61,227 bases of DNA from Oligoflexia bacterium (GTDB lineage: Bacteria > Bdellovibrionota > UBA1018). A program made the position numbers and the translations under genes. The stretch is taken from contig CAIRTR010000130.1 of the NCBI GenBank assembly GCA_903881565.1, forward strand, positions 1-61,227, in the 5' to 3' direction. Below, piece after piece: positions 5,976 through 45,737 of this stretch. The notes beneath the pieces are model-generated. The model had not been told where the DNA came from and did no database searches. It saw only the letters and a list, made by a program, of their open reading frames with translations. Numbering within the stretch: the stretch's first letter is position 1; each line of letters opens with the position of its first letter.

Positions 5976-7274
5976 CTAAAATGAAAAATGTCGAATATCG
6001 TAGAGCGCCTTCTTAAGCTCCGATCTGAAATCAGGATGAGCAATCGCAATCAGCGCCTCACCCCGCTCGCGTAATCCCATACCGTGAAGATTGACGGCAC
6101 CAAACTCCGTAACCACCCAATGAACATGACCCCGCGTTGTCACCACCCCTGCCCCAGGCTTCAGTGCCGGCACAATTCGAGACAGTTTCCCAGACGAAGC
6201 AGTAGCGGGCAGCGCGATGATGGGTTTTCCACCCTTAGAAAGGGCAGCTCCATGAATAAAATCCATTTGGCCACCAATCCCTGAAAAAATCTTATGACCA
6301 ATGGAATCGGCACAAACCTGTCCCGTCAAATCGATTTCGATGGCGGAGTTGATCGCAACCATCTTGTCGTTTCTGCGAATAGCCGCCGTATCATTCGTGC
6401 GATCACAAGGGTGAAACTCGACATTCGGGTTATCATGCACAAAATCGAAAACAACTTTAGTTCCCACGACAAAACTCGTCGTGATTCTTCCCGGGTGCAC
6501 CGCCTTGAATCGATTCGTGATCACTCCCGCATCAACCAGCGCCACGAGATTATCGGAAAACATCTCAGTATGAATTCCTATGTCGTTCTTATTTGTGAGG
6601 CGGCTTAACACCGCATTTGGAATTCCCCCAATCCCCATCTGTAGACAAGAGCCATCTTCAACCAAATGAGCGATGGACTCCCCAATTTGCGCTTCAACGG
6701 GGGTTTCTGGCGTTAATGCAGCTGAAATGAGCGGCCGATTGGAATGCATAAACGCATGCACCCGATCGATATGAACGAACGAATTGCCATGAGTCCGTGG
6801 CATCTGGTCATTAATCTCCGCAATAATATATTTTGCCGAATCAACGGCAGCCTTTGCCGTATCCACTGACGTACCAAGCGTGCACCAACCGTGACCATCC
6901 GGTGGGGAAAGCTGTACGATCGCCACATCCAATGGAATTTTCTGCGACGTAAAGAGATTGGGAATATCCGACAAGAAAATGGGGACGAAATCCGCGCGAC
7001 CTTCTTCAATAGGCTTTCGTAAAGAAGCTCCCGTAAAAAGCGAAACTGAAAAAAATCGGCCCTCTTGACTCACATCTGCGAAGCGACAAGGTCCATTCGT
7101 ATGAAGGTGATAAAGCCTCACGCCCTCTAGCCCAGGTTTGTCACAAAGGGCCTCAATCAAAGGAGTGGGCGTGGCTGCGGCGCCGTGAATAAAAACGCGC
7201 ATGCCACTTTGAATTACTTCTACAGCATCTGAAGCACTTACAGCTCTCGGTTCCCAAGCTCTCGTGTATCGCAT
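5976..7274 (-). CDS. Acetyl-CoA hydrolase/transferase family protein (4-hydroxybutyrate CoA-transferase-like)
   Basis: 432 aa. N- and C-terminal CoA-transferase family regions are present (IHGAAATP, EINDQMPRTHG, LQMGIGGIPNAV, GSGGQMDF-like SGIGGQMDFIHGA). Confidence 0.9.
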   Translation of the reverse strand: MRYTRAWEPRAVSASDAVEVIQSGMRVFIHGAAATPTPLIEALCDKPGLEGVRLYHLHTNGPCRFADVSQEGRFFSVSLFTGASLRKPIEEGRADFVPIFLSDIPNLFTSQKIPLDVAIVQLSPPDGHGWCTLGTSVDTAKAAVDSAKYIIAEINDQMPRTHGNSFVHIDRVHAFMHSNRPLISAALTPETPVEAQIGESIAHLVEDGSCLQMGIGGIPNAVLSRLTNKNDIGIHTEMFSDNLVALVDAGVITNRFKAVHPGRITTSFVVGTKVVFDFVHDNPNVEFHPCDRTNDTAAIRRNDKMVAINSAIEIDLTGQVCADSIGHKIFSGIGGQMDFIHGAALSKGGKPIIALPATASSGKLSRIVPALKPGAGVVTTRGHVHWVVTEFGAVNLHGMGLRERGEALIAIAHPDFRSELKKALYDIRHFSF

Positions 7275-7352
7275 GATGAAATCTCCTCGTTAGGTATGAG
7301 TTGGAGTAATCACCCTGCACTGTAGTTCAAAAATTTGAAAACCGCCTCAAAA

Positions 7353-8624
7353 TTAGTGTGAAATTCCGAACCATGCCTTGAGATATGCACCCTCGGTAAA
7401 ACTCGATAGCACCGGATGATCTGGGCTCTGAGAGCCTCGCCCGATCCATGACACGCTCGCACCGTGACGTTGCGAAGCCTTTGCAAGGGTGGCCACAAAG
7501 TCACTTTCAGGCAGTAGTCCCGAGCACGAACAACTGATCACGCCGCCGCCGCGCCTAATTAAGCGAAACACTTCTGTATTTAATTTCAGGTAGGCATGAG
7601 TGCCCGTCGGAATATCTTTACGCGACTTGATCAAAGCAGGCGGATCGCAAACGATCAAATCAAATTCTCCTTTGGGCCAAGAGGCAAGATCTTTAAGCAC
7701 ATCCGCCTTGGCAGTCTTAAAACTAATTTTATCAAGATTTCGGGCGGTAAAGTCTAGAGCTTTTTGCGAAGCGTCGACCGCAGTCACTTCGACTGAAACG
7801 CCCTGCTTCACTAGGCTGCGCGCAAGCGAAGAACTCCACTGACCGACGTAACAACAAAGGTCCAAGATTTTAAGCGGGCGCTTGCCAAGCTCGAGCCCTT
7901 CGGCAAACGCGCGCCCAAAAAGCTCTACGCCTTTTTTGATGTTCGAGGCTTGGTCCAGGAAAAATCCTGTCTTTTGACCATTAATGAGATCGGTCCAAAA
8001 CAGGTGCTCACCCACTTTGATTTGAGTCTCTTCGAGGTGAGCGAATCCGGCTTTTCTGAAAACTTGAGGTTCTTGTTCAGTGAGGCCTTCAAGCTTTCGA
8101 ACGCCCATATCATTGCGGAGGACGATTGCGGTTTGAGACCAGGGAGTTTGGAAGAGGTTTTCGCCCACGAGCTTTTCGAGGGCCTCAATGATCGCGGGAA
8201 TTCGGACATCGATTCCGGCGGTGTGCGCTTGGATTACTAGGACCTGGCCTTGATCTGTTTTGTATCGATCGATGACGAGTCCGGGCAGTTGATCGGATTC
8301 ACCAAAGCATGCGCGAAAACTGGAGGCTTGGAGGCCAGCACTAATCCGGAGCGTGATGGCCTGCCGGAGCTTTTGAGTGAAGGCCTCGACTGAATCCGGA
8401 GTCTTGAGCTCGGGATCGCGCGTGAGTTCGCGAAAGGCGATCAGCGAATGGGGATTGCCATAACCGCGGGCCAGAAACCCGCCGCTGGGATCACGAAGCT
8501 CGACGAGGGCGCCGGGCTCGAGACCTTTAGGTGATTCCAAAATTTCATTGGAATAAACCCAAGGGTGACCTTGGCGGAATCGGCGGTCGGAGTTTTTTCG
8601 GAAATGCCAGATGTGTGGGGTCAT
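7353..8624 (-). CDS. rlmI: 23S rRNA (cytosine-C5)-methyltransferase RlmI-like, class I SAM-dependent
   Basis: N-terminal PUA-like region (GHPWVYSNEI), central KTGFFLDQ, SAM fold (LDLCCYVGQWS, DPPA), C-terminal PVLSSFTEGAYLK. Collinear with E. coli RlmI. Confidence 0.85.
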   Translation of the reverse strand: MTPHIWHFRKNSDRRFRQGHPWVYSNEILESPKGLEPGALVELRDPSGGFLARGYGNPHSLIAFRELTRDPELKTPDSVEAFTQKLRQAITLRISAGLQASSFRACFGESDQLPGLVIDRYKTDQGQVLVIQAHTAGIDVRIPAIIEALEKLVGENLFQTPWSQTAIVLRNDMGVRKLEGLTEQEPQVFRKAGFAHLEETQIKVGEHLFWTDLINGQKTGFFLDQASNIKKGVELFGRAFAEGLELGKRPLKILDLCCYVGQWSSSLARSLVKQGVSVEVTAVDASQKALDFTARNLDKISFKTAKADVLKDLASWPKGEFDLIVCDPPALIKSRKDIPTGTHAYLKLNTEVFRLIRRGGGVISCSCSGLLPESDFVATLAKASQRHGASVSWIGRGSQSPDHPVLSSFTEGAYLKAWFGISH

Positions 8625-8917
8625 GGAGTTCTTTTATCCGGAAAGGGGGGCGATTCCAAGCGCGGGGTGGCCTGGCGCGCCGAATTTCCGAAATCGTGAA
8701 GAAAATGCCCGAAGGGTGCAGGGCTAAGGCCAATAACTTCAGTATTTGAGAAGAAACTCGCCGCAGGGTTCGCCCGCAAGCGAAAACAAATGAGCGTGTG
8801 CAAATCATGGATTCCATGCGAAGGCTCCTTCGTAGACATGTGCAAGCCCATTAACTTCTTGTTGATGCGAGCAATCCCCGCATATTTAAATGCCCCTGGA
8901 TGCCTTAAAGTCATCAT
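8621..8917 (-). pseudogene. Possible truncated HD-domain phosphohydrolase remnant (98-aa ORF)
   Basis: SHGIHDLHTLI...(about 30 aa)...GHFLHDFGN resembles the H...HD first half of an HD domain. The second half is absent because the ORF ends in an ATGA overlap with the rlmI start. It may also be a spurious ORF. Confidence 0.3.
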
Positions 8918-8922
8918 CGAGT

Positions 8923-9219
8923 TCAGGGATGAGAGATAATTGCGATAATCGTAATTACACTCTTACCAGGTCCATAGTGCCAGAATATGCGATAAGCTGC
9001 AGGCGTGTTATTCTCGGCATAAGCTTCAAAAATCTCTTCGCTGTTAGGTCCCATCAGAGATGAGTATTTGTGAGTATTGAGCCCTTTATGACGAGGATTC
9101 ACTTCGAGATCCCCTAAAGCCTTGCGAACCGCCTTGAGACGTTTTCCCAAACTCCGATCCTTTTCGAGCGTTCGCAGATTTGAATCCGCTTCAGTCGTGA
9201 ACTTAAGCTCAAAAAACAT
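8923..9219 (-). CDS. Type II toxin-antitoxin system toxin, RelE/ParE-superfamily-like
   Basis: 98 aa, immediately (6 nt) downstream of the antitoxin gene. N-terminal MFFELKFTTEA and C-terminal YRIFWHYGPGKSVITIIAIISHP are typical of RelE/ParE-fold toxins. Confidence 0.7.
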   Translation of the reverse strand: MFFELKFTTEADSNLRTLEKDRSLGKRLKAVRKALGDLEVNPRHKGLNTHKYSSLMGPNSEEIFEAYAENNTPAAYRIFWHYGPGKSVITIIAIISHP

Positions 9220-9225
9220 TAGGCG

Positions 9226-9540
9226 TTATTCGTCTTTCTCGTCAGACTCATCTGGCTCACCAGACTCTGCGGCATATTTTGCAAAAGATCCCCGCGCCTT
9301 TACTTCGCCCTTGGCCGAATCAATAAGGCCTCGCTTTACACTCGCAAATGCCGTCTTATTTCCAAATAACCATTTCTCTCGAGCCGGAATCTCTACCATG
9401 GGCTCCAGCAACACTGCCCCATTCGATTGCTCAGTGACGCAAAAACTACTGACCCCTTCAGCAAACCTTCCCAAAGCGATTCTCCCTTTTGAATCCGGCC
9501 GAAGCTGAACTGACTTCTTGGTTGCGAATGATCGCGGCAT
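9226..9540 (-). CDS. AbrB/MazE/SpoVT-type antitoxin with acidic C-terminal tail
   Basis: LRPDSKGRIALG swapped-hairpin-like N-terminus, EKWLFGN...ALASVKRGL-type middle region, acidic tail ESGEPDESDEKDE. Lies upstream of the toxin in the same operon. Confidence 0.75.
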   Translation of the reverse strand: MPRSFATKKSVQLRPDSKGRIALGRFAEGVSSFCVTEQSNGAVLLEPMVEIPAREKWLFGNKTAFASVKRGLIDSAKGEVKARGSFAKYAAESGEPDESDEKDE

Positions 9541-9587
9541 AGAATCGACTCCCTAAGATCCATTATAACTGAATGTGGGAAATCAGT

Positions 9588-9616
9588 AAAGTGGGATATA
9601 CCACAAATCCCACTTT
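9588..9616. promoter_or_regulatory. Perfect 10-bp inverted repeat (AAAGTGGGAT-N9-ATCCCACTTT), candidate TA operator
   Basis: Read directly from the sequence, 48-76 nt upstream of the antitoxin start. A related half-site GTGGGAAAT lies at about 9575. Function is inferred from the autoregulation typical of type II TA operons. Confidence 0.4.
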
Positions 9617-9740
9617 AGCCATCTCTGTGTTATGAAACGTATTTTATCAGAACGCCTGACTCGATACAGGCTGTGCCCTCAGCTACCCGACAAAACCCTT
9701 GCGCTTATCACGCCCAAGATGCGATTTAACACCCACAACT

Positions 9741-11240
9741 ATGCACCCTTCACTCAACTGGAAAGAGATCGCTCACCTCGCCCAAACGACTCTCCCGAAA
9801 ATCAAGGGCCAGTTCGTGGACCGCGTCTTCGTGCCTGCGCGCCCGAGACATCCTCAAGGATTTGTGAAATCCGAATGGGTCTTGCGCCTCAGTTCGTGCG
9901 AGCTTTTTATTAGCGTTCGCCCCCAGACCGCCTTTTTTGCACTCGCACCACTTAAGACTTTCAAGCCGGCCCGCGAAGCTTCGCGTTCCGCTTTTGATCT
10001 GGCACTCGCAAAACACCTCGCGGGCTCTAAGCTCTTGGACTTGAGGGCCCTGGACCAGGAACGAATGGCGATCTTTACCTTTAGTTGTGATCAACCCCAA
10101 ACAGAGCTGGGATTGTTTCTCAACCTGATTCCCGCATCGCCCGAAGCGCTTCTTGTCTTGGATCGACCGGAGAATTTGCACGCCGGAAACTTTAGCAACG
10201 TCTTATCTCGCACGAAAACTTTGGACGAAAAAATCCGCTCGAACTTCGAAGTTCCGAAAGGGAAACCCGCCCCGCAAGACCTGCCGCTTCGGCCGCAAAC
10301 CGCAACCCCTGAACTCTTTTTCAAGTTTGTAGAGCAAGAGCATCTTACGGAAGTTCTAAAACTTCGCATTCAACGAGCGACGCAAATACTCAAGCACCAA
10401 ATCAAAGACTGCGAAACCGGACTTCGACAAGCGCAAACGGGTCTAAGAGAGGCCCAAACAGAGCCAGATTGGCGGAAACTGGGCGCGCTGCTCACGCAAG
10501 TTTTACATGACCCGCCCCCTCTGGAGAGGGCCAGCGCCAAAAGCAAATACCCCGATATTCGCCGCGTACATGATTTCGCAACCGACACGCTCATCGAGAT
10601 CCCGTGCGATCCAAAACTCGATGCAAAAGACCAGGCTGCGCGCTACTATGCAAACTTCAAACGAACGAAAAAGCGGATCGAACTAGGAACAATGCGGATC
10701 GAGGACTTTTCCCAGAAACTCATCCGCCTCAAGAAACTCGAGAAACTTGAACTGCCCCCTGGTGAATGGAGCACCCTAGAATCTCTCGAATCAGAACTGG
10801 GACTTGGCGGCGATCTTCAAGGGAGTGCCAAGGCAAAATCCGAAGAAGACACCCACCCAGGCCGCGCCTTTAATTCGCATGATGGCTGGCTTATTCGAGT
10901 CGGGCGAAACAAAGATGAAAACCTAGAACTCACGGTGAGATTAGCAAAAGGCAACGACCTCTGGCTTCATCTGCGCGGCAAACCCGGCGCCCATGTGCTC
11001 ATCCCCTGCCGCTCCGGAAAATCCGTTCCGCTTGAAACGCTCTTAGATGCTGCTCACCTGTGCGTTTATTACAGCGGCGGCAAAGATGCCGGGAAGGCCG
11101 AAGTCGACTACACCTTCCGAAAACATGTTAAGCGGATCAAAGGCTCCGACGAAGTCACTTACACCCAAAACCGAACCCTCTCGATCGATCCGGACCCCGT
11201 CCGTCTTCAACGCCTCTTATCTCAGTATGCAAACACCTAA
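9741..11240 (+). CDS. NFACT-family protein (RqcH/FbpA-like) with NFACT-R/DUF814 domain
   Basis: C-terminal GRNKDENLELTVRLAKGNDLWLHLRGKPGAHVLI...YYSGGKDAGKAEVDYT is the NFACT RNA-binding (DUF814) signature. A coiled-coil middle region is present. The start is taken at MHPSLNW; the ORF track starts at 9699. Confidence 0.8.
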   Translation: MHPSLNWKEIAHLAQTTLPKIKGQFVDRVFVPARPRHPQGFVKSEWVLRLSSCELFISVRPQTAFFALAPLKTFKPAREASRSAFDLALAKHLAGSKLLDLRALDQERMAIFTFSCDQPQTELGLFLNLIPASPEALLVLDRPENLHAGNFSNVLSRTKTLDEKIRSNFEVPKGKPAPQDLPLRPQTATPELFFKFVEQEHLTEVLKLRIQRATQILKHQIKDCETGLRQAQTGLREAQTEPDWRKLGALLTQVLHDPPPLERASAKSKYPDIRRVHDFATDTLIEIPCDPKLDAKDQAARYYANFKRTKKRIELGTMRIEDFSQKLIRLKKLEKLELPPGEWSTLESLESELGLGGDLQGSAKAKSEEDTHPGRAFNSHDGWLIRVGRNKDENLELTVRLAKGNDLWLHLRGKPGAHVLIPCRSGKSVPLETLLDAAHLCVYYSGGKDAGKAEVDYTFRKHVKRIKGSDEVTYTQNRTLSIDPDPVRLQRLLSQYANT

Positions 11241-11532
11241 TTGGTTTCGGGAAACGCCCGAGGGAATTATCCTCCTGCTTTATATTCAGCCCCGTGCTTC
11301 CCGCACCGAAATCGTAGGCTTGCATGGAGAACCTCCTCGACTCAAGATCCGCATTGCGGCTCCACCGGTTGAAGGAGAAGCCAACGAAGAAGTCGTGAGG
11401 TTCCTCAAGAAGACCCTCAAAATTCCGAGCTCCCAGATTATTATTTTGCGAGGAGATACCGGGAGAAACAAAGAAGTCTTATGCAAAGGCATAAAAGCCG
11501 AAGCGCTCAACCTACTCCACAAAGTTTCTTAA
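11227..11532 (+). CDS. yggU: DUF167 family protein YggU
   Basis: LLLYIQPRASRTEIVGLHGEPPRLKIRIAAPPVEGEANEEVVRFL...RGDTGRNK matches the YggU pattern. The ATG at 11227 overlaps the upstream stop by 14 nt. Confidence 0.85.
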   Translation: MQTPNWFRETPEGIILLLYIQPRASRTEIVGLHGEPPRLKIRIAAPPVEGEANEEVVRFLKKTLKIPSSQIIILRGDTGRNKEVLCKGIKAEALNLLHKVS

Positions 11533-12948
11533 CACGTACTCCAATGCTTCATCTTTGGTCGTAAGCTTTCCCTCAAGCGTCAGATCATCTATTTTGCGCA
11601 AAATTCCCGAAAACTCAGGCCCTGGACTAAAACCCATTTGGATCAGATCTTTTCCATCAACAAGTTTCATGGACTTAAGATCCGCACTTTTACCCTTCGC
11701 CTTCATTTCAAGCCAACGTGAATGGCAAAACTCATAAGCGGCAAGGTTTCCATCGGAGACCGTGGCATCAGCCCCATGAAACGCCAGCAACTCTTCAAAA
11801 TGAGGCTCACGAATAAAGCGCTGCAGGGTCGCCTCGCGCATCTGAAAAGCCCCGCGGAACTTCAAATGATCGCCTACAATGGCTGCCGTGCGTGCGACCT
11901 GTTCAGAAGAAAATTTAAGCCTGATTCCGACTTCGCGCACAGCCTCTGCGCTTTCAAGCTCATGGTTCTGGAAACTCTTTCCGCCCGTTTTCCTAAAAAC
12001 AATCGGCTTTCCAATATCATGCAGCACCGACGCCCAAGCCAAGGCCTCACTTCGATGTGGATTTAATTGCGCCACTCGGGCAACGACTCTCAGCGTATGT
12101 TTCCACGGATCCCCTTCGGCTTTAAGCTTTCGCAGACTCTCAAGCTCCGGCAACACATAATTTAGCAATCCATATTCATGCAAAGCCAACAAGCCTCGAT
12201 CCGGGTGAGGTCCCAGGAAAAGCAGCGTTAACTCATCACGAACGCGCTCAAAACTGATTCGGGTAATGAGCCGCGCATGCTTTTTTAATGCCTCACTCGT
12301 TGCCTTCTCGATGCCAAACCCCAAGGCCACACTCAAGCGAATAGCCCGAAGCAACCGCAACGCATCCTCGCGAAAGCGTTCATTGGGCACCCCAATGGCG
12401 CGAATGACGCCGTTCTTGAGATCGTCAACACCTCCCACGGTATCTAGGATGCGCCCCGACTTTGGATCGTAAAAAAGGGCATTCACCGTAAAATCCCGAC
12501 GAGCGGCATCCTCCGCAGGCCCGGAAAGCTTTATCTGTTTAGGATGGCGGTGATCCTCATACTCAAGATCCTCTCTGAAACTTGCAATCTCCAAAGGAGG
12601 GACATCCACCTCTCGAACGGGAACCTTTAAAACACCAAATGCCTTACCGACTGTGACGGCATCTAAGAATAATTCCTGAATTTCGTCGGGCGTCGCACTC
12701 GTCGCAATGTCATGGTCCTTGGGTTCTCGACGCAGCAAAAAATCGCGAACACTCCCACCCACAAGGTAAGCCAAATGCCCCGCCCGATCCAATTGTTCTA
12801 AAGCGCGTTTAACATAGGTGGGAAGTGGAAAGGGCCGGTCAATCCGGATCCACTTCGAGCTGCTCACCATTAAGCTGGTACTTGCTTCGGATGACCGTGT
12901 CCGCTTCAAAGCGGTTGCGCGCTTGGGTACCTTCGGTTTCTTTGTCAC
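11512..12948 (-). CDS. cca: CCA tRNA nucleotidyltransferase with HD domain
   Basis: LVGGSVRDFLL, RDFTVNAL and RAIRL head-domain motifs, then an HD region (VLHDIGKP). The true start may be the ATG at 12870, because the first about 36 codons overlap ORF 12839..13117. Confidence 0.85.
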   Translation of the reverse strand: MTKKPKVPKRATALKRTRSSEASTSLMVSSSKWIRIDRPFPLPTYVKRALEQLDRAGHLAYLVGGSVRDFLLRREPKDHDIATSATPDEIQELFLDAVTVGKAFGVLKVPVREVDVPPLEIASFREDLEYEDHRHPKQIKLSGPAEDAARRDFTVNALFYDPKSGRILDTVGGVDDLKNGVIRAIGVPNERFREDALRLLRAIRLSVALGFGIEKATSEALKKHARLITRISFERVRDELTLLFLGPHPDRGLLALHEYGLLNYVLPELESLRKLKAEGDPWKHTLRVVARVAQLNPHRSEALAWASVLHDIGKPIVFRKTGGKSFQNHELESAEAVREVGIRLKFSSEQVARTAAIVGDHLKFRGAFQMREATLQRFIREPHFEELLAFHGADATVSDGNLAAYEFCHSRWLEMKAKGKSADLKSMKLVDGKDLIQMGFSPGPEFSGILRKIDDLTLEGKLTTKDEALEYVLRNFVE

Positions 12949-13117
12949 CGGTTTTTCCGCCTTTCTTTCGATTCTTGCTCGGCTTCACTGCCACGTCCGC
13001 TGAAGGCTTCTCGGCCAACACAGCCTGCGACTCTGCTTGGGCATTTGCCGGCACAGGCTCTTCGGCAAAACACATATCGGCCCCGAGGAAACTAAACCAT
13101 AAGAGGAAAATACCCAT
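12839..13117 (-). CDS. Small secreted lysine-rich hypothetical protein
   Basis: 92-aa ORF with a signal-like N-terminus (MGIFLLWFSFLGADMCFA), between ftsK and cca on the same strand. It overlaps the annotated-length cca N-terminus. Confidence 0.4.
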   Translation of the reverse strand: MGIFLLWFSFLGADMCFAEEPVPANAQAESQAVLAEKPSADVAVKPSKNRKKGGKTGDKETEGTQARNRFEADTVIRSKYQLNGEQLEVDPD

Positions 13118-13125
13118 AAAACATC

Positions 13126-15708
13126 TTACCTCATCAAAACTTCCCGGGGACGAGCGCCATCAGCGGGGCCTACGATTCCTCGGTTTTCCATTGTTTCAAT
13201 CAACCGCGCTGCGCGGTTGTAGCCCACTTTAAAGTGGCGCTGCAGATAACTTGCTGATGCATGCCCCGAAGTTTTCACCAGTTCAACGGCTTCCCCAAAA
13301 AGCTCGTCATCTTGATCTTCGACACTCTCGCCATTCTCTTCATCTTCTTCATCCGAGATCAGAATTTCGTTTCGATAATTGGGCTTGCCCTGCGATTTCC
13401 AAAATGCGGTGACCTTATTAATTTCATCATCATCCAGATAAGCCCCGTGCAATCGAACTGATTGTGAAACACCCGGGGGAATAAACAACATATCCCCTTG
13501 TCCCAAGAGCCGCTCTGCTCCGGCCCGATCCAAAATCGTTTTCGAATCGACGTAACTTGCCAGCTGAAAAGAAACCCGCGATGGAAGATTGGCTTTGATC
13601 AAACCGGTAATAACGTCGGTAGAGGGACGCTGGGTCGCAACCACAAGATGAATTCCGGCGGCGCGCGCTTTTTGGGCAATCCGGGCAATTGAGATTTCAA
13701 CTTCTTTTTTTGCAATCATCATCAAATCCGCAAGCTCATCAATAATGATCACGATATAAGGAAGCTTTCCAACCTGCGGCACGCCTTGATCATCCGGCTC
13801 AAAAGCTTCCATCCAATCCGACGAATTCATTTTGATGGGAAGCATCTCGGCATCTTCTTCTTCGGAAAGTAGCAGATCGTGGACCGCGTCCGCCCCCAGA
13901 TCCTGAACTTTCTGATTGAAACCCGCTAGATTCTTGGCCCCGATTTTCGCCAGGATTCGATAACGACGATCCATTTCGCGCACGGCCCATTTTAGGGCGG
14001 TGGCGGCTTCTTTGGCGTCATCAACGACTGGAAGCAAGAGATGGGGAACATCTTGATAAGAGCGAAACTCAATGAACTTTGGATCCACTAAGATCATGCG
14101 AAGCTCATCGGGCGTGAAGCGATAAAAGAGCGAGCAGATCAGGCCGTTCATGAAAACGGATTTTCCAGAACCCGTTTGACCGGCGCACAAAAGATGCGGC
14201 ATCCGGCCTAAATCTGACAAGAACGGTTGCCCCCCAATGTCTTTCCCCATGACCAAGGGAATAGCGTGGCGAGATCCTTGAAAATCAGTTTGCTGCAAAA
14301 ACTCGCGCATGAAGACCATTTCGCGATGATCACTTGGAATCTCAATCCCCACGACCGATTTACCCGGCAAGGGAGCCAGGATGCGAACACTTTGCGCTGA
14401 CAACGCCATTGAAAGATCATCGGCCAGCGCCGCGATTCGAGAAACCTTCACACCCGGCCCAGGGCGAAATTCATAAAGCGTGATCACCGGCCCTGGACGT
14501 ACTGCAACCACCTCACCACCAATTCCGAAGTCCGCAAATTTTTGCTCAAGTATCTTGGAATTCTTAAGCAGCTTGTCTTTATCAATCAAAGATTCCGATT
14601 TAGGCGGTTTCCGCAAAAACTCGATCGTGGGCAACTTCCATGCTCCGCGTCTGCTCTTAATAGAACTTTTGGGGACGACATCGGAGGAGCGTTTTGAATG
14701 ATCATGGGCCAGGATTTCAGGGACATTTGTTGAGGTTTGCTCCGCCGGCCTGGACTTGGGCTTCTCAAGCTCCGGTAAAACATTGGGGGCCTCAGACGTA
14801 GTTAACGGCGCAGTAAGGGCAGCCGGAGGAGGCAATGGCCTGCTCTCCAGTTCAATGATCGTCTCTTCTTTCCTTTTGTCAGCCGCGCCATCAGGGGGAA
14901 TTGCGGTAGAAATCACTTTAGTTGCCGAAACCGTTTCGCGCCTTTCACGGGCCTTGCGGACCGCCGTTTCAAATAGCTTTTGAATCCCATCACCAAGGGC
15001 ATGCGCCGCGCGCATGAAGAAAATGCCTAAGAAATAGATTGCGTAAGCGCCTGCAATTCGGAGGAGTCGAAAACCACCTTTGAGAAGCGCAAAACCGACA
15101 ATGCCCATTGCCTTTAGAACTCGCGCTCCCGCTCGCGCCACACTAAAAGGCGTTGCGAAAGCAAAGGCCAGGCAAAAAACCAGAAGAGAAACAATTGAAG
15201 AACCCAGGGGATTAAATTGTTTGAGCAACCCTTCGGCCACCCAGCTTCCGGCAATTCCGCCGGTCAGCAAAAGACTCCCACCTAACGGCCAATACTTCCA
15301 CTGGAGACCCAGAAAAACAGTGAGCCCCATGACGGCCACAGACATCCCACCTAAGGTTCCAAAAACCCGCAATCCCCCCTCACGTCGATGAATTGATGCC
15401 GTGATGAAAAAAAGTGCCGCAGGGAGTAGAAACGATCCCATCCCGAAACACTGCAGTAACGCCGCAGCGAGATAAGCCCCCACTCGACCGCATGCGTTTT
15501 GCACCCCCGCATGCGTACTTGTAAAAAGTGAAGGGTCAGAAGGGTGAAACGTTAGCATCGCGCATAACGTAAATATACCCAGCGCGAAAACCAAAATACT
15601 TGCGCCCTCAACCCAAAGTGATTTTCCATTTGCCTTAGAGGAATTCTGTCTGCTTTCCATATTCCTATGGTACATGGGGATTGATGACTCAGAAAGTAGT
15701 TTTGGCAT
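13126..15708 (-). CDS. ftsK: DNA translocase FtsK
   Basis: N-terminal multi-TM region, Pro-rich linker, motor domain with Walker A (GQTGSGKS) and Walker B (IIIDELADLM), C-terminal gamma winged-helix (SASYLQRHFKVGYNRAARLIE). Alternative starts are at 15675 and 15660. Confidence 0.95.
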   Translation of the reverse strand: MPKLLSESSIPMYHRNMESRQNSSKANGKSLWVEGASILVFALGIFTLCAMLTFHPSDPSLFTSTHAGVQNACGRVGAYLAAALLQCFGMGSFLLPAALFFITASIHRREGGLRVFGTLGGMSVAVMGLTVFLGLQWKYWPLGGSLLLTGGIAGSWVAEGLLKQFNPLGSSIVSLLVFCLAFAFATPFSVARAGARVLKAMGIVGFALLKGGFRLLRIAGAYAIYFLGIFFMRAAHALGDGIQKLFETAVRKARERRETVSATKVISTAIPPDGAADKRKEETIIELESRPLPPPAALTAPLTTSEAPNVLPELEKPKSRPAEQTSTNVPEILAHDHSKRSSDVVPKSSIKSRRGAWKLPTIEFLRKPPKSESLIDKDKLLKNSKILEQKFADFGIGGEVVAVRPGPVITLYEFRPGPGVKVSRIAALADDLSMALSAQSVRILAPLPGKSVVGIEIPSDHREMVFMREFLQQTDFQGSRHAIPLVMGKDIGGQPFLSDLGRMPHLLCAGQTGSGKSVFMNGLICSLFYRFTPDELRMILVDPKFIEFRSYQDVPHLLLPVVDDAKEAATALKWAVREMDRRYRILAKIGAKNLAGFNQKVQDLGADAVHDLLLSEEEDAEMLPIKMNSSDWMEAFEPDDQGVPQVGKLPYIVIIIDELADLMMIAKKEVEISIARIAQKARAAGIHLVVATQRPSTDVITGLIKANLPSRVSFQLASYVDSKTILDRAGAERLLGQGDMLFIPPGVSQSVRLHGAYLDDDEINKVTAFWKSQGKPNYRNEILISDEEDEENGESVEDQDDELFGEAVELVKTSGHASASYLQRHFKVGYNRAARLIETMENRGIVGPADGARPREVLMR

Positions 15709-41465: not shown

Positions 41466-42086
41466 ATGCAGAATCAGAAAATAGATTGGATCACGAAACT
41501 CACCTTCACTTTATGGATAGCGGGAAGCTTCACCTCGAGCCTCGCTGCCCTTCCTCAGAAACAAAGTTGGAATCTCGATCCCACCAAAGACGAGGGAAAA
41601 GTTGAGTTTGTCGCAATCGGCAAACCCAGCCTGCTTAAGATTCACGGCGTTGGCGCAGCCCCTAAAGGAAACTTCGCCATCCAAGGATCTTCTGTCTCGG
41701 GCCGCGTCGAATTCGCCTTGCAAACCCTCGATTCAGGAATCGAAATGCGCGACAAGCACATGAAGGAGAAGTACTTGGAACTTGAAAAGTTTCCGGTCGC
41801 GACGCTTGAAATCAAAAACCTCATTTTGCCGCGGCCCGCACCTGAGGGAGATTTCGCAATGGAAGGGGTCGCTTTTGAAGGTCCTTTGACACTGCATGGA
41901 TTAACAAAACCTGTAAAAGGAACAGCCAAGATTGCCCGCGCGGGCGGCCAAATGTTAGTTGAAGCGGAGTTCGGTTTAAAAATTACGGACTTCGCAATAC
42001 CCATCCCGAACTTTGCCGGCATTGCGATAGCCGATGAGGTGAAAATTCATGTGGAATCAAAAGCAAGCAAGGTGGCTTCAAAATGA
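41466..42086 (+). CDS. YceI-like family protein, secreted (cassette 2)
   Basis: GGAGA lies 7 nt upstream of the ATG at 41466. GKVEFVAIG...LQTLDSGIEMRDKHMKEKYLELEKFPVATLEI...GPLTLHGLTKPV. Paralogue of 20685..21323. Confidence 0.85.
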   Translation: MQNQKIDWITKLTFTLWIAGSFTSSLAALPQKQSWNLDPTKDEGKVEFVAIGKPSLLKIHGVGAAPKGNFAIQGSSVSGRVEFALQTLDSGIEMRDKHMKEKYLELEKFPVATLEIKNLILPRPAPEGDFAMEGVAFEGPLTLHGLTKPVKGTAKIARAGGQMLVEAEFGLKITDFAIPIPNFAGIAIADEVKIHVESKASKVASK

Positions 42087-43197
42087 ACTGACCTCCACCC
42101 TAGTCATCGCCCTAACCATCACTCTCGGAGTGGCCACCCATCCCTCCGAGAGTTTTGCTTTTCCCGAAATGGTCAGACATGGCTATCAAAACTGCACGGC
42201 TTGCCACATCAGCACGAATGGCGGAGGCATCCTCACTCAATATGGCCGAGCTTTGTCTCGCGAAGTGATGAGCAGCTGGGGACAAGAGGGAGAAGAAAAT
42301 TTCCTCTATGGCGCAATTCCCCCTGTTAACTGGCTGGCACTTGGCGGTGATGTACAAACACTAAACATCACGCAACAAGACCGAGCTCCTCAGAGCCGTT
42401 TTATTCTGATGCACGCGGATCTTGAAGCTGCAGTGAACGTCGGCCAATTCACAGCAACCGGAACGCTGGGTTTGCTTGATAGCGCCATATTTCCAGAAGG
42501 CAATCATCTTATTAGCAGGCGCCACTATCTACGCTATCATCCAACAGACGAGCTCTTCTTTCGCGCCGGTCGCTTTAACCAAGCTTTTGGAATCAATACG
42601 GCCGAGCACGCGATGGTCACTAAACGAAGCTTAGGCTGGGACGAGGGATCGGAGTCCTATAATCTTGAAGGCTCGTGGATCGGTGAAAAGGTGAACGTTT
42701 ACGTCACCGGCAACTTTGGCAGACTCGACTCACCAAAGTTGAATCGTGACGTCGGAGTGACTGGAAGTTTAGCCTACGCGGCCGCAGAGAAAATAAAAAT
42801 AGGGAGCAGCTACTACTATGGAACTAACGATTTTGCTCGTCGAAATATTTTGGGTGGCTGGGGGATTGTTGGATTTACAAAAAAGATCGTTCTCCTGGGG
42901 GAATACGATCTTCAACGCTACTTCGCCGCCACAGCCATAGATCCGCAATGGGGATCAGTCGATTATCTCAAACTCGACGGCGAAGTCTTGCGTGGATTGC
43001 ATGTCTTTGCCACCCAGGAATACGCACAACTGAACTTCCTTGATAGCAATACCCAAACTTATGTTTATGGCATCGGAACCCAATTCTTTCCGCGGCCCCA
43101 TTTTGATTTTCAATTGGTTTTTCAAACGCGAGACAACGTCGGGACCGGTCTAGGGTTCAAGAACTGGGTGTTCTTCCTGCTTCATTATTATCTTTAA
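42049..43197 (+). CDS. Predicted outer-membrane beta-barrel protein with N-terminal CxxCH haem-c motif (cassette 2)
   Basis: GAGGTGA lies 6 nt upstream of the ATG. The signal peptide ends ...ESFA and the mature N-terminus is FPEMVRHGYQNCTACH (CTACH at 42193..42207). Strand-like sequence runs to the C-terminal FFLLHYYL. About 60% identical by eye to 19591..20685 over the first 65 or so mature residues. Confidence 0.75.
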   Translation: MWNQKQARWLQNELTSTLVIALTITLGVATHPSESFAFPEMVRHGYQNCTACHISTNGGGILTQYGRALSREVMSSWGQEGEENFLYGAIPPVNWLALGGDVQTLNITQQDRAPQSRFILMHADLEAAVNVGQFTATGTLGLLDSAIFPEGNHLISRRHYLRYHPTDELFFRAGRFNQAFGINTAEHAMVTKRSLGWDEGSESYNLEGSWIGEKVNVYVTGNFGRLDSPKLNRDVGVTGSLAYAAAEKIKIGSSYYYGTNDFARRNILGGWGIVGFTKKIVLLGEYDLQRYFAATAIDPQWGSVDYLKLDGEVLRGLHVFATQEYAQLNFLDSNTQTYVYGIGTQFFPRPHFDFQLVFQTRDNVGTGLGFKNWVFFLLHYYL

Positions 43198-43206
43198 GCC
43201 TAACGG

Positions 43207-44889
43207 CTAGTGACAGCGATCGCACCCACCGATACTACCCACACCATGTTGATAATATCCTTTTTTCCATGGCTTGGAGTTCTGGTGGCAAAAGAGACAA
43301 TCTCCCGCTTTCGCGTGCGAAAAATGATGTTCGCCCAATTTAGTAGGACGCTCTACCTCATGGCATTCCCCACAGTTACGTTTGGGAGCCGGATTGTGCC
43401 CGAAAACCGCGCCCGACCAATTTGGGGCGGCCTTCTTATGGCATCCGATGCAGTCTCCCGATCCAAAAGTCTCATGATCAAATCGCTTGACGACGCCGAT
43501 CGGAGCTCCCGTGTTATGACAAGGAAAGCAAGACGCTTCGAGCGTGCCGCCGGCTGAATGCTGAAACTTCCAATTCGAAACGCCGGAGTTCTTGGACACA
43601 TGACAAAGATTACAATCTTTGTCGCCAAAATGGCTCAAAACGGTAGGCTTAGGTGCTGAAGGATTAACGGTTGGGAAAATAGTTTTGTCTGGCCGTTTCT
43701 GCTCATGACAATTCGAACACGTTTTCAAAGTCGAATTTTGAGCAGGATGAGGACTCACGGCTTTCCAACTTTTCCCCACTTCCAAATGGCATCCCAGACA
43801 ATCCACGCTGCCATAATGCGAAGATACGGGCCGGCGCGCCTCATGGCAGCTTGCACACTCCGAGAGGCCCCTGGGATGAACATAAACCGTGCGACTCCAA
43901 GGCTGATTAAATTGATGACAGCTCAGGCAATCCCCAGCCTTCTGATGCGAAAATCCATGTGTGACTGCAGGTGGGCGATTCGCTTCGTGGCATGGCAAAC
44001 AAGATTGCACCGGTGCCGGATCATGTTTGAACACGCCCCCACTCCACACCTTGCTGTCCTGGTGACACTTGAAACAATCTCCGGCTCCGAAAACCTGATG
44101 AGTAAAGCGCCCGATCATCGCCTCAGGGCGTTTATCCGCATGACAAGGCAAACAGGATTTCAGGGAATTCTGATTTGCCGAGTGGGTGTAAACGAATTTG
44201 CCACCTTCAACCGTCCGAGACTCGTGACAAAGAATGCAATCATCCGCACCAAAGTGCCCGGGCTGCTTCTGCGTCACTTGCGGTCTATCGCGCTCATGAC
44301 AGCCGTTACAATTTACGGGGACTGGATTGTTCTGGGGATGAGGTGAACTTGTCGACTGCGCCCAACTCCGAGTTGAGTCAAGGTGACAGCTTGCGCAGTC
44401 CTGCCCGGCAAAATGATCCGGCGATTTTCTGCGAGACTCATGGCACGGCAAGCAGGTCGCTATCGAGCGAAGTTCAAAATTCTTATGCGTAAAACGAAAT
44501 CCGACATCCTGATTTTGACCCGCTTCATGGCAAGAAAAGCAATCTTGCTTACCGAAATGTTCGGGCTTCGGCCGATTGACCTCGTGACATAAAACGCAGG
44601 AACTCGGCAATGGCTTATGAGTGAAGTTCTGTAAGGCTTTCCAACTTGGCCCGATTCTGTGGCAAATCGCGCAGTCCGCGCTTTGCCCATGGGGAACACC
44701 CGCAACCGGCGCGGGGCGAAGGGTTTCGTGGCAACTTGAGCAAGACTGTTCCGCCACGATCGCATGAGAAAACTTCGCTACTTTTGATGCTTCATTTGTG
44801 ACCGCAGGCTGTTCTAAAAAGTTACACCCCTGAGAAAATATCCCAGACAAAAAGAGCGCGACTAATGCGGCTGAAACCCAGATTTTCAT
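43207..44889 (-). CDS. Multihaem c-type cytochrome with 21 CxxCH motifs, lipoprotein-like signal
   Basis: I counted 21 CxxCH motifs in 560 aa. Ten tandem dihaem units follow the pattern CxxCHExxRP...HFGxxDCxxCH (Paired_CXXCH-like). The last motif, CDRCH, is the C-terminus. The N-terminus is MKIWVSAALVALFLSGIFSQGC. Confidence 0.9.
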   Translation of the reverse strand: MKIWVSAALVALFLSGIFSQGCNFLEQPAVTNEASKVAKFSHAIVAEQSCSSCHETLRPAPVAGVPHGQSADCAICHRIGPSWKALQNFTHKPLPSSCVLCHEVNRPKPEHFGKQDCFSCHEAGQNQDVGFRFTHKNFELRSIATCLPCHESRRKSPDHFAGQDCASCHLDSTRSWAQSTSSPHPQNNPVPVNCNGCHERDRPQVTQKQPGHFGADDCILCHESRTVEGGKFVYTHSANQNSLKSCLPCHADKRPEAMIGRFTHQVFGAGDCFKCHQDSKVWSGGVFKHDPAPVQSCLPCHEANRPPAVTHGFSHQKAGDCLSCHQFNQPWSRTVYVHPRGLSECASCHEARRPVSSHYGSVDCLGCHLEVGKSWKAVSPHPAQNSTLKTCSNCHEQKRPDKTIFPTVNPSAPKPTVLSHFGDKDCNLCHVSKNSGVSNWKFQHSAGGTLEASCFPCHNTGAPIGVVKRFDHETFGSGDCIGCHKKAAPNWSGAVFGHNPAPKRNCGECHEVERPTKLGEHHFSHAKAGDCLFCHQNSKPWKKGYYQHGVGSIGGCDRCH

Positions 44890-45737
44890 TTAATCTCTTG
44901 AAAGCGCAGCGCACTCAAACCTTTGAGATCCACTTGGCTGGTGTAATAATAGAGCTTAATGAGACCATAGGTATCGGCGCAAAGGGCTTCATCCCAGTTT
45001 TTGATGCACTGATCTTCTTGCTCAGGAGTCGCATACTCAGGAGAGTCAAAAGCGCGTCTCACACTGAAACGCTCCTCGTTTGAGCAATCCTTTTCGGTTT
45101 TTGCATCGACCGTGTTTCCGTTGATCAAAAGAAAATCATCATCCTTACAGGCTCCCTCAGGAACCAGCAAATTGAACGCCGTTTCAAATCGCGCCATTCC
45201 CAATTCGACTCCGATAGCCGAATCCCCAGCGCCCAGATCTAAAATGTGAATTCCGTTATGAGACAAGAAACGAGCAGCGGCGCCGTAAATAAAGCCAATG
45301 GTGGCATTGATTCCTGTAAAATGTCCTGAAAAATCCCCGACCGTTTTGCCGTTAAGATGAGTGACGCTCATACTAAAATTACGAGTTTCTGTAAGAAAGC
45401 CGACACCGGTTCCAAACCCCGGGAGTCCGCGCATGTTAAAAGCGATTCGGTAATTCACGCCCACTTTCGGGCTTTCGCATTCCAAAAAAAACTGAAATTG
45501 ATCAAAGGTGACGCCGCCAATTACGGCGGCACCACTGGATTGAATTCCTAAGCTGCCATGATCATAACTCCGGATTTTGCATGATTCGTAGGGAAGTATC
45601 CCTGGATGAGCTTTGCCCCACAGTGAACCCTTGATGGGAAGATACTCTTGAGGCTCGTCAGCAAAGACGTGAAAAGAGGTAAGACTCAGGAACAAAACTG
45701 ATAGTAACTGTACAAATTCAGTCGAACGGTATTTCAT
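44886..45737 (-). CDS. Secreted hypothetical protein, translationally coupled to the multihaem cytochrome
   Basis: Its stop overlaps the cytochrome ATG (4-nt overlap at 44886..44889). MKYRSTEFVQLLSVLFLSLTSFHVFA is a signal peptide when started at 45737 (alternatives are 45761, or the GTG at 45863). Gly-rich beta-like core, Cys-containing C-terminal region. Confidence 0.6.
   Translation of the reverse strand: MKYRSTEFVQLLSVLFLSLTSFHVFADEPQEYLPIKGSLWGKAHPGILPYESCKIRSYDHGSLGIQSSGAAVIGGVTFDQFQFFLECESPKVGVNYRIAFNMRGLPGFGTGVGFLTETRNFSMSVTHLNGKTVGDFSGHFTGINATIGFIYGAAARFLSHNGIHILDLGAGDSAIGVELGMARFETAFNLLVPEGACKDDDFLLINGNTVDAKTEKDCSNEERFSVRRAFDSPEYATPEQEDQCIKNWDEALCADTYGLIKLYYYTSQVDLKGLSALRFQEIK

Follow-up and report, generated by a model that had tools for sequence, protein, structure and literature searches.

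What does a bacterium gain from a protein that consists of haem-binding sites and almost nothing else? This question is raised by a gene on the minus strand (43207..44889) of contig CAIRTR010000130.1 from an Oligoflexia bacterium (assembly GCA_903881565.1; Bdellovibrionota, UBA1018), whose 61,227 nucleotides are the window analysed in this study. The open reading frame (ORF), the motif count with its shuffle control, and the Pfam scores define the product as a cytochrome of 560 amino acids with 21 CxxCH motifs. An initial annotation, made from the sequence, had read it as a haem wire for extracellular electron transfer (EET). This remained the best reading at the level of what the protein works like, and the genome was found to have MtrA/MtrB, CcsBA, and NrfCD-type modules. 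We consider it reasonably probable that the cytochrome acts as an electron conduit of the cell envelope within an EET network.

The gene and its haem-binding motifs

The ORF was intact and ran from an ATG start codon over 560 codons to a TAG stop codon. The 21 CxxCH motifs do not overlap and amount to one per 26.7 residues of the 560-aa protein, which confirms the exact count of the initial annotation. In 10,000 residue shuffles of the cytochrome, the motif occurred 0.26 times on average and three times at most; chance is therefore excluded. CxxxCH, CxxxxCH, and CxxCK variants were absent from the 560-aa protein. The motifs hold 42 of its 43 Cys residues, the remaining one being Cys22, and its composition includes 45 His and two Met residues. 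The mature cytochrome was computed to have 539 aa, a pI of 8.4, and a mass of ~59 kDa, or ~72 kDa if it carries 21 haems.

At the DNA level, self-repeats were short, degenerate, and confined to the CxxCH codons. It follows that the repeats of the cytochrome are old and that an assembly artefact is unlikely. The base composition around the gene showed no anomaly, and a scan of the locus for promoters and terminators gave nothing exceeding the shuffle expectation. The protein ends in GGCDRCH and the DNA in ...TGC GAT CGC TGT CAC TAG, so that, as had been noted earlier, the stop codon directly follows a haem-binding motif. No further cytochrome-like sequence was encoded beyond the TAG. This terminal haem unit (CDRCH, residues 556–560, plus the stop codon; 43207..43224, minus strand) has His548 as a candidate sixth ligand upstream.

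Repeat architecture and candidate haem ligands

Cutting the chain at the odd-numbered motifs gave ten A-B dihaem modules of 46–63 aa with pairwise identities of 27–50%. The modules follow the pattern CxxCH-E-x-x-R-P ... H-[FY]-G-x-x-D-CxxCH ... W ... [FY]-x-H, in agreement with the ten dihaem repeats and the consensus described previously. Their proposed origin, the serial duplication of a Paired_CXXCH-like unit, also held, since Paired_CXXCH_1 (PF09699) matched the whole cytochrome with 59.8 bits compared with a gathering cut-off of 20.6 bits. The register of this model (B-to-A) opens at the His that precedes an even-numbered motif and closes shortly after the odd-numbered one that follows; in this register, all ten units matched over model positions ~1–40 of 41 with 12.3–22.9 bits each, and two of the ten individually reached the cut-off. 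The Pfam register thus presents the protein as one single-haem unit followed by ten head-to-tail Paired_CXXCH_1 units, the final one closing at the C-terminus. Paired_CXXCH_1 (PF09699/TIGR01905), the 'doubled CXXCH' of Geobacter- and Shewanella-type multihaem cytochromes, is itself a motif domain with no assigned function.

A His residue was found 6–11 residues upstream of every one of the 21 CxxCH motifs, namely H42, 67, 91, 111, 135, 159, 184, 212, 236, 264, and 289 for motifs 1–11 and H315, 338, 358, 381, 420, 444, 472, 498, 525, and 548 for motifs 12–21. Together with the His residues of the motifs, these account for 42 of the 45 His residues. The elementary unit of the chain is H-x(5-10)-CxxCH, which occurs in 21 copies of two alternating flavours. 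In the family alignment, all Cys and many of the upstream His residues were invariant across the homologues. The class III cytochromes c3 and c7 have their sixth ligands upstream of the motifs. If pairing of the c3/c7 type holds, all 21 haems could be bis-His ligated in cis, with each CxxCH providing the covalent attachment of a haem and its fifth ligand, and the upstream His serving as the sixth. A sixth ligand located upstream would allow the chain to stop on a CxxCH motif, because nothing would be needed downstream.

The position of the outermost sites could also be read as that of a head-to-tail filament, in which haem 21, at the C-terminus of a subunit, would be ligated by His42 of the adjoining one, as happens between the subunits of OmcS-type nanowires. 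The 'spare' His before motif 1 and the haem site at the extreme C-terminus would suit such an arrangement, but the one-to-one pattern of upstream His residues closes all 21 sites within one chain, in line with the upstream position of the sixth ligands in c3 and c7. Furthermore, polymerisation would be impeded by the putative lipid anchor at the N-terminus, which lies 20 residues from His42, and the filament subunits OmcS, OmcE, and OmcZ were absent from the PDB sequence and profile matches at E up to 1. Polymerisation of this kind is scarcely credible.

A longer period, the 8-haem super-repeat, was detected by phmmer and blastp. Its first copy comprises residues 136–334 with motifs 5–12 (43888..44484, minus strand), and its second copy residues 340–543 with motifs 13–20 (43261..43872, minus strand). 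When the C-terminal half was compared with the whole protein, phmmer gave an E value of 3e-48; by blastp, the copies were 42% identical over 206 aa (E 4e-54). The super-repeat is composed of two types of four-haem cassette, the copy number of which varies among homologues. The 8-haem units of five proteins gave an unresolved tree with long branches; the internal 8-haem duplication appears to be old, and the tree says no more than this.

Comparison with characterised cytochromes

In addition to PF09699, the whole cytochrome exceeded the cut-offs of Cytochrome_C7 (PF14522; 72.6 bits compared with 24.8), the class III cytochrome c family Cytochrom_CIII (PF02085; 66.6 bits compared with 22.9), and Cytochrom_c3_2 (56.2 bits, above its gathering cut-off). 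The scores with models of characterised proteins were far lower than the respective cut-offs: 61.6 bits compared with 192.2 for a partial match to the DmsE/MtrA decahaem family (TIGR03508; residues 114–303), 32.3 compared with 400 for the hexadecahaem HmcA (NF045713), 30.1 compared with 209.3 for the OmcA/MtrC decahaem family (TIGR03507), 22.1 compared with 184 and 20.9 compared with 166.6 for NrfB (NF008659 and TIGR03146, respectively), and 15.2 compared with an equivalog cut-off of 120 for cytochrome c7 proper (NF043011).

These scores bear on the question of whether the protein could itself reduce a soluble substrate (nitrite, sulfite, hydroxylamine, or tetrathionate, for example) or could serve as the arm through which electrons enter an enzyme. 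Local, weak resemblances to NrfB, NrfH, and c554 speak for it. Against this stand the family scores, the NrfB score among them, and the composition of the chain, which has no CxxCK motif, no motif lacking an upstream His, and no non-haem domain, the whole mature chain being repeat. No gene for a catalytic subunit was present nearby. An enzymatic role of either type is highly improbable.

In the PDB, a sequence search with the single cytochrome returned only NrfB, as a weak match (E 0.005). A repeat profile constructed from 35 repeat segments gave chain A of 6r2q as the best match (E 3e-7, in four stretches), with further matches to OcwA (6i5b), cytochrome c554, MtrC, and NrfB. Chain A is a 333-aa multi-CxxCH chain that carries the label 'Cystathionine beta-synthase' in the PDB table, apparently owing to a deposition or labelling error, and chain C of the same entry is named as an OmcA/MtrC-family decahaem cytochrome. 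We take 6R2Q to be the MtrCAB complex of Shewanella baltica and hence chain A to be MtrA.

Taken together, the comparisons suggest that the cytochrome resembles a linear haem chain of the MtrA/NrfB type in its working and belongs to no characterised family. With MtrA/DmsE (6R2Q chain A) and the pentahaem NrfB (2OZY), it would share tightly packed, linearly arranged CxxCH haems, little secondary structure, spacing of the Paired_CXXCH type, and a pure electron-transfer role (profile E values of 3e-7 for 6r2q_A and 0.003–0.005 for NrfB). It differs from them in its 21 haems, compared with 10 or 5, and in being a putative lipoprotein, whereas MtrA and NrfB are soluble or inserted into a porin. Moreover, unlike MtrA, it is encoded without an adjacent MtrB, and the MtrA/MtrB pair of the genome lies on another contig. 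The likeness to the class III cytochromes c3 and c7 consists in a density of one haem per ~27 residues, sites of the bis-His type whose sixth ligands lie upstream, and tandem duplication, whereas the period is one or two haems instead of the three-haem domain of ~70 aa found in c7, and the lipoprotein anchor (putative) is a further difference. Presumably, the dodecahaem GSU1996, a polymeric c7 of Geobacter, is a comparable case. MtrC/OmcA of Shewanella, OmcB of Geobacter, and OcwA of Thermincola (6I5B) likewise combine an N-terminal lipid anchor, which is putative in the window protein, with many bis-His haems, and the repeat profile matched OcwA and MtrC with E values of 1e-4 to 3e-3. However, the window protein is devoid of their beta-barrel flavin-binding domains. 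It is possible that it forms an MtrC-like outer partner of MtrAB.

The N-terminus

The cytochrome begins with MKIWVSAALVALFLSGIFSQGC, in which a signal peptide followed by a putative lipidation site, MKIWVSAALVALFLSGIFSQG-C, was read (44824..44889, minus strand). Cys22 hardly varies within the family, being conserved in at least 90% of ten aligned members, and the equivalent lipobox residues of homologues are LQGC, GSGC, LSGC, or LGGC. The lipoprotein N-terminus that had been proposed is plausible in view of this conservation, while the lipobox itself proved to be atypical. Lipidation at Cys22 is likely; alternatively, signal peptidase I may cleave after SQG.

Homologues and the five-gene cluster of the paralogue

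A search of 5.8 billion clustered proteins yielded 71 matches to the cytochrome, the nearest non-identical ones being 37–41% identical across ~90% of the length. The homologues bore no name or were labelled 'hypothetical', and those with a named source came from metagenome-assembled genomes (MAGs) of Bdellovibrionales/Oligoflexia. They contained 16–36 CxxCH motifs at ~27–32 residues per haem and had lipoprotein-like N-termini. At most a few residues followed their last CxxCH, the typical ending being ...GxCxxCHxxxRSWxx. In three of them (P0008, P0025, and P0032), CxxCH forms the very C-terminus as it does in the window protein, so that this ending is not unique. The members P0002–P0019, which include a protein of Bdellovibrionales bacterium GWB1_55_8 and a paralogue on contig C199 of the window genome, share with the window protein the same two cassette types, the lipobox Cys, and the haem density. 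They differ from it in having mostly even haem numbers, the RSW tail, and a five-gene operon, none of whose other members adjoins the window copy. In one homologue of 910 aa (P0007), ~20 haem units are fused to a C-terminal non-haem region of ~400 aa with fibronectin-like repeats and a PF07603-type (DUF1566-like) domain, which suggests a surface-displayed, adhesin-like variant of the family.

A pattern scan of the GTDB species representatives found only three loci, in Oligoflexia bacterium LJ_bin-4497, which belongs to the same GTDB family as the window genome, in Bdellovibrionales bacterium GWB1_55_8, and in an uncultured Bacteriovoracaceae. In a set of 61 genomes, comprising that of the window and 60 family- and order-level relatives, five matched the cytochrome at E up to 1e-10.

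The paralogue on contig C199 is a lipoprotein with 26 haems and 34–38% identity to the window protein. It is encoded by the second gene of an operon of five overlapping genes (6459-14114 of that contig). The first gene encodes a cytoplasmic flavoprotein of 468 aa with Fer4 and Pyr_redox_2/3 domains, the third a polytopic membrane protein of 277 aa, the fourth a secreted protein of 447 aa that is possibly a barrel, and the fifth a 633-aa cytochrome with 21 haems; the third and fourth products had no Pfam hit. The same five-gene operon was found around P0004 and P0006 in other MAGs (L001, 4622-12544; L003/L004), which represent at least two other MAG lineages. The operon looks like a complete conduit from the cytoplasm to the outside, of an undescribed type. 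Judged by sequence, the lipoprotein gene of this conserved cluster is the paralogue of the window gene, which itself is an orphan.

An orphan paralogue could be redundant and possibly silent, that is, a product of duplication that drifts at a variable locus without a function of its own. The gene is detached from the five-gene cluster of its paralogue, which would agree with this, as would the lack of the short ...xxxRSWxx tail by which typical homologues extend beyond their last CxxCH and the different arrangement of the locus in a same-genus genome. However, all 21 CxxCH motifs and all 21 upstream His residues are intact, and neither a frameshift nor an internal stop codon occurs in 1,680 bp. 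The 8-haem halves are only 42% identical, yet every ligand has been kept, which points to long purifying selection, and the start codon overlaps the stop codon of the upstream gene. We regard loss of function by drift as improbable.

Cytochromes and electron-transfer modules of the host genome

The window assembly is 4.56 Mb in size, in 323 contigs, with 98.75% completeness and 50.4% G+C. At least 22 of its ORFs contain four or more CxxCH motifs, which gives a total of ~240 motifs; proteins with 26, 21, 21, 19, and 17 haems are among the products. The 41 matches to PF09699 were the highest number among the 61 genomes, 21 of which had at least one match and about ten relatives at least ten. These counts do not support the initial inference that such a cytochrome would be unexpected in a host of the aerobic predator type.

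Contig C115 carries adjacent genes for CcsA (PF01578, 94.6 bits) and ResB/CcsB (PF05140, 68.3 bits), which constitute a System II maturation apparatus, and CcmE was not found anywhere in the genome. On the same contig, a gene for an MtrA-like decahaem protein of 312 aa lies directly upstream of that for a 780-aa MtrB_PioB porin (213 bits), and there are two modules of a multihaem protein, an NrfC-like 4Fe-4S protein, and NrfD, which are typical of quinol:cytochrome oxidoreductases. This respiratory island (L021/L022), at ~9.4–39.7 kb, also holds cytochromes with 17 and 7 haems. In the paper collection searched, no paper treating the multihaem cytochromes of Bdellovibrionota themselves was found, the two papers that name both touching on the phylum only briefly, and the only report found of such machinery in the phylum describes MtrAB homologues in magnetotactic Bdellovibrionota (PMC13200544).

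Proposed role of the 21-haem cytochrome

In the role that we favour, the cytochrome would be exported by the Sec system, lipidated at Cys22, and loaded with haem by CcsBA, a system that is present in the genome. Folding would then give an uninterrupted chain of 21 bis-His haems, all of them low-spin, at ~27 residues per haem, in a manner similar to MtrA and NrfB; this is deduced from the one-to-one His pattern, the scarcity of Met, and the similarity to these two proteins. Having no catalytic site, the chain would be a passive conduit in the envelope that only passes or holds electrons. Its place could be the outer membrane, on the periplasmic side, or, if it is an MtrC-like outer partner, the cell surface, and it would relay electrons between the quinol-oxidising cytochrome modules of the periplasm and inner membrane and an MtrAB-type conduit of the outer membrane or external acceptors. 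Since the genome has MtrAB, NrfCD-type modules, and many periplasmic cytochromes, a relay in an EET network is the most economical role. The direction of electron flow is the presumed one, as are haem loading, ligation, lipidation, and location.

A more specific version of this role can be considered, in which the lipid-anchored protein bridges the periplasm and hard-wires the NrfCD-type quinol dehydrogenases of the inner membrane to MtrAB of the outer membrane. The ten haems of MtrA span ~8 nm, and with the same haem spacing the wire would be ~16–18 nm long. To our knowledge, no static single-polypeptide wire that spans the periplasm has been demonstrated so far. The bridging version is doubtful.

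Several results weigh against the role of the cytochrome as an EET conduit. The gene is outside any operon with a porin, a quinol dehydrogenase, or another cytochrome, and its sole coupled neighbour encodes an unrelated secreted protein. No match at E up to 1e-10 was present in the same-genus genome, which has another gene at the syntenic spot; the cytochrome is therefore dispensable for the genus. No NCBIfam model reached its cut-off with the cytochrome, so that there is no functional equivalog. The lipobox FSQG-C departs from the criterion [LVI][ASTVI][GAS]C at positions −3 and −2. The structural models were of no help either. AlphaFold2 gave a mean confidence (predicted local distance difference test, pLDDT) of 38 for the full-length cytochrome with a 10-sequence alignment, which is unusable, and of 60 for a 120-residue, 5-haem C-terminal fragment with the 35 repeat segments, the last 22 residues of which were below 50; Foldseek found no match in the PDB for the low-confidence model. 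Such poor models are to be expected when folds that depend on haem are predicted without it, and the ligand assignment consequently rests on the sequence pattern.

The isolation of the gene and its absence from a species of the same genus would also be accounted for if the protein were an electron store or redox buffer (a 'capacitor'), or a periplasmic sink that detoxifies metals or oxidants, instead of a respiratory link outward. Its 21 bis-His-type haems would give it a large charge capacity, it is encoded without a porin or quinol-dehydrogenase partner, and the related species manages without it. On the other hand, other members of the family share their operons with genes for an oxidoreductase, a membrane protein, and a further large cytochrome, an arrangement that has the look of a through-conduit, and the genome does have MtrAB. 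Storage or detoxification is thus an unlikely role, and we retain the reading of the cytochrome as an envelope conduit for EET.

Genes adjoining the cytochrome gene

The gene upstream of the cytochrome gene (44886..45737, minus strand) encodes a 283-aa secreted protein with a signal peptide. It overlaps the start of the cytochrome gene by 4 bp (ATGA), and the two genes are likely to be co-transcribed. The 283-aa protein had no match in Pfam or NCBIfam, and a word-index search with it returned only the protein itself. An exhaustive HMMER search among 1.8 billion proteins revealed 42 remote homologues of 225–350 aa, so that the gene does have a family, contrary to the first impression. The family is small, very divergent, and unnamed, and its members share an N-terminal PLxGSxWAKxHPGxLPYExC, a Cys pair, and a C-terminal ...L.F.KI; its only further resemblances are faint echoes of DUF992 and COG5400 (PDB 5uc0). 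Unique to the window copy is an insertion of ~60 aa, Cys-rich and acidic, close to its C-terminus.

The upstream gene had also been suggested to encode a partner or chaperone of the cytochrome. In five contexts of its homologues, the neighbours were a serpin-like lipoprotein, rpsO-pnp, unknowns, DUF1579, and CHAD, and none of the five contained a cytochrome. Conversely, the homologues of the cytochrome never adjoined a gene of the 283-aa type in the contexts examined. No paralogue of the 283-aa protein was found in its own genome, and the 285-aa membrane protein from the clusters of the cytochrome homologues shows no homology to it. These data do not support a conserved partnership or a chaperone role.

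In the same-genus genome (contig C299, 1172-2002), a different and unrelated divergent gene for a secreted protein, with no homologue in the window genome, lies beside a conserved gene for a 269-aa SRPBCC-like protein. This suggests that the genes for the 283-aa protein and the cytochrome form a two-gene unit at a variable locus; the syntenic contig is only 2 kb long and does not give the exact insertion boundary.

On the other side, the cytochrome gene converges with a gene for a one-haem beta-barrel (42049..43197, plus strand), which has one CxxCH near its N-terminus and no Pfam hit. It is the last gene of an operon that also encodes a dihaem cytochrome c lipoprotein and YceI. This haem-porin has more than 200 homologues, mostly in Bdellovibrionales/Oligoflexia. 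The signature of Cyc2 comprises AxPxFAR[QK][TY]-x5-CxxCH and a downstream PxL motif (PMC8406198), whereas the barrel has AFPEMVRHG-YQN-CTACH and no PxL motif. It appears to be Cyc2-like in architecture only. A relationship between the haem-porin and the 462-aa protein of the homologues' clusters was also ruled out. None of the homologues of the 21-haem gene was adjacent to a haem-porin gene; since these homologues occur in other contexts, the haem-porin is merely a neighbour and the adjacency is not conserved. The stop codons of the two convergent genes are separated by 9 bp (43198-43206) with no terminator-like hairpin between them, so that transcripts from each side would enter the opposite gene as antisense.

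Significance

At the level of the gene, the window protein is one more large modular multihaem cytochrome, of a kind that is common in metagenomes and whose general job of moving electrons is understood. With 21 His...CxxCH units and almost nothing else, it offers a compact natural template for the study and engineering of long haem wires, and it provides a simple rule for why multihaem proteins can end on a haem-binding motif.

Any surprise lies at the level of the lineage. The phylum is known mostly for aerobic predators. A rich EET toolkit is present in the window genome and in about a sixth of its 60 relatives, and it extends from MtrAB, NrfCD-type modules, and System II maturation to the five-gene cluster that leads from a cytoplasmic iron-sulfur flavoprotein to two giant cytochromes. 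This toolkit and the five-gene cluster are more interesting leads than the single gene. A periplasm-bridging wire, if it existed, would mean that a clade of Bdellovibrionota-related bacteria lives by respiring minerals or electrodes. Mineral respiration by these bacteria, or an exchange of electrons between them and other cells, would, if true, give a wider ecology to a phylum that is noted for predation.

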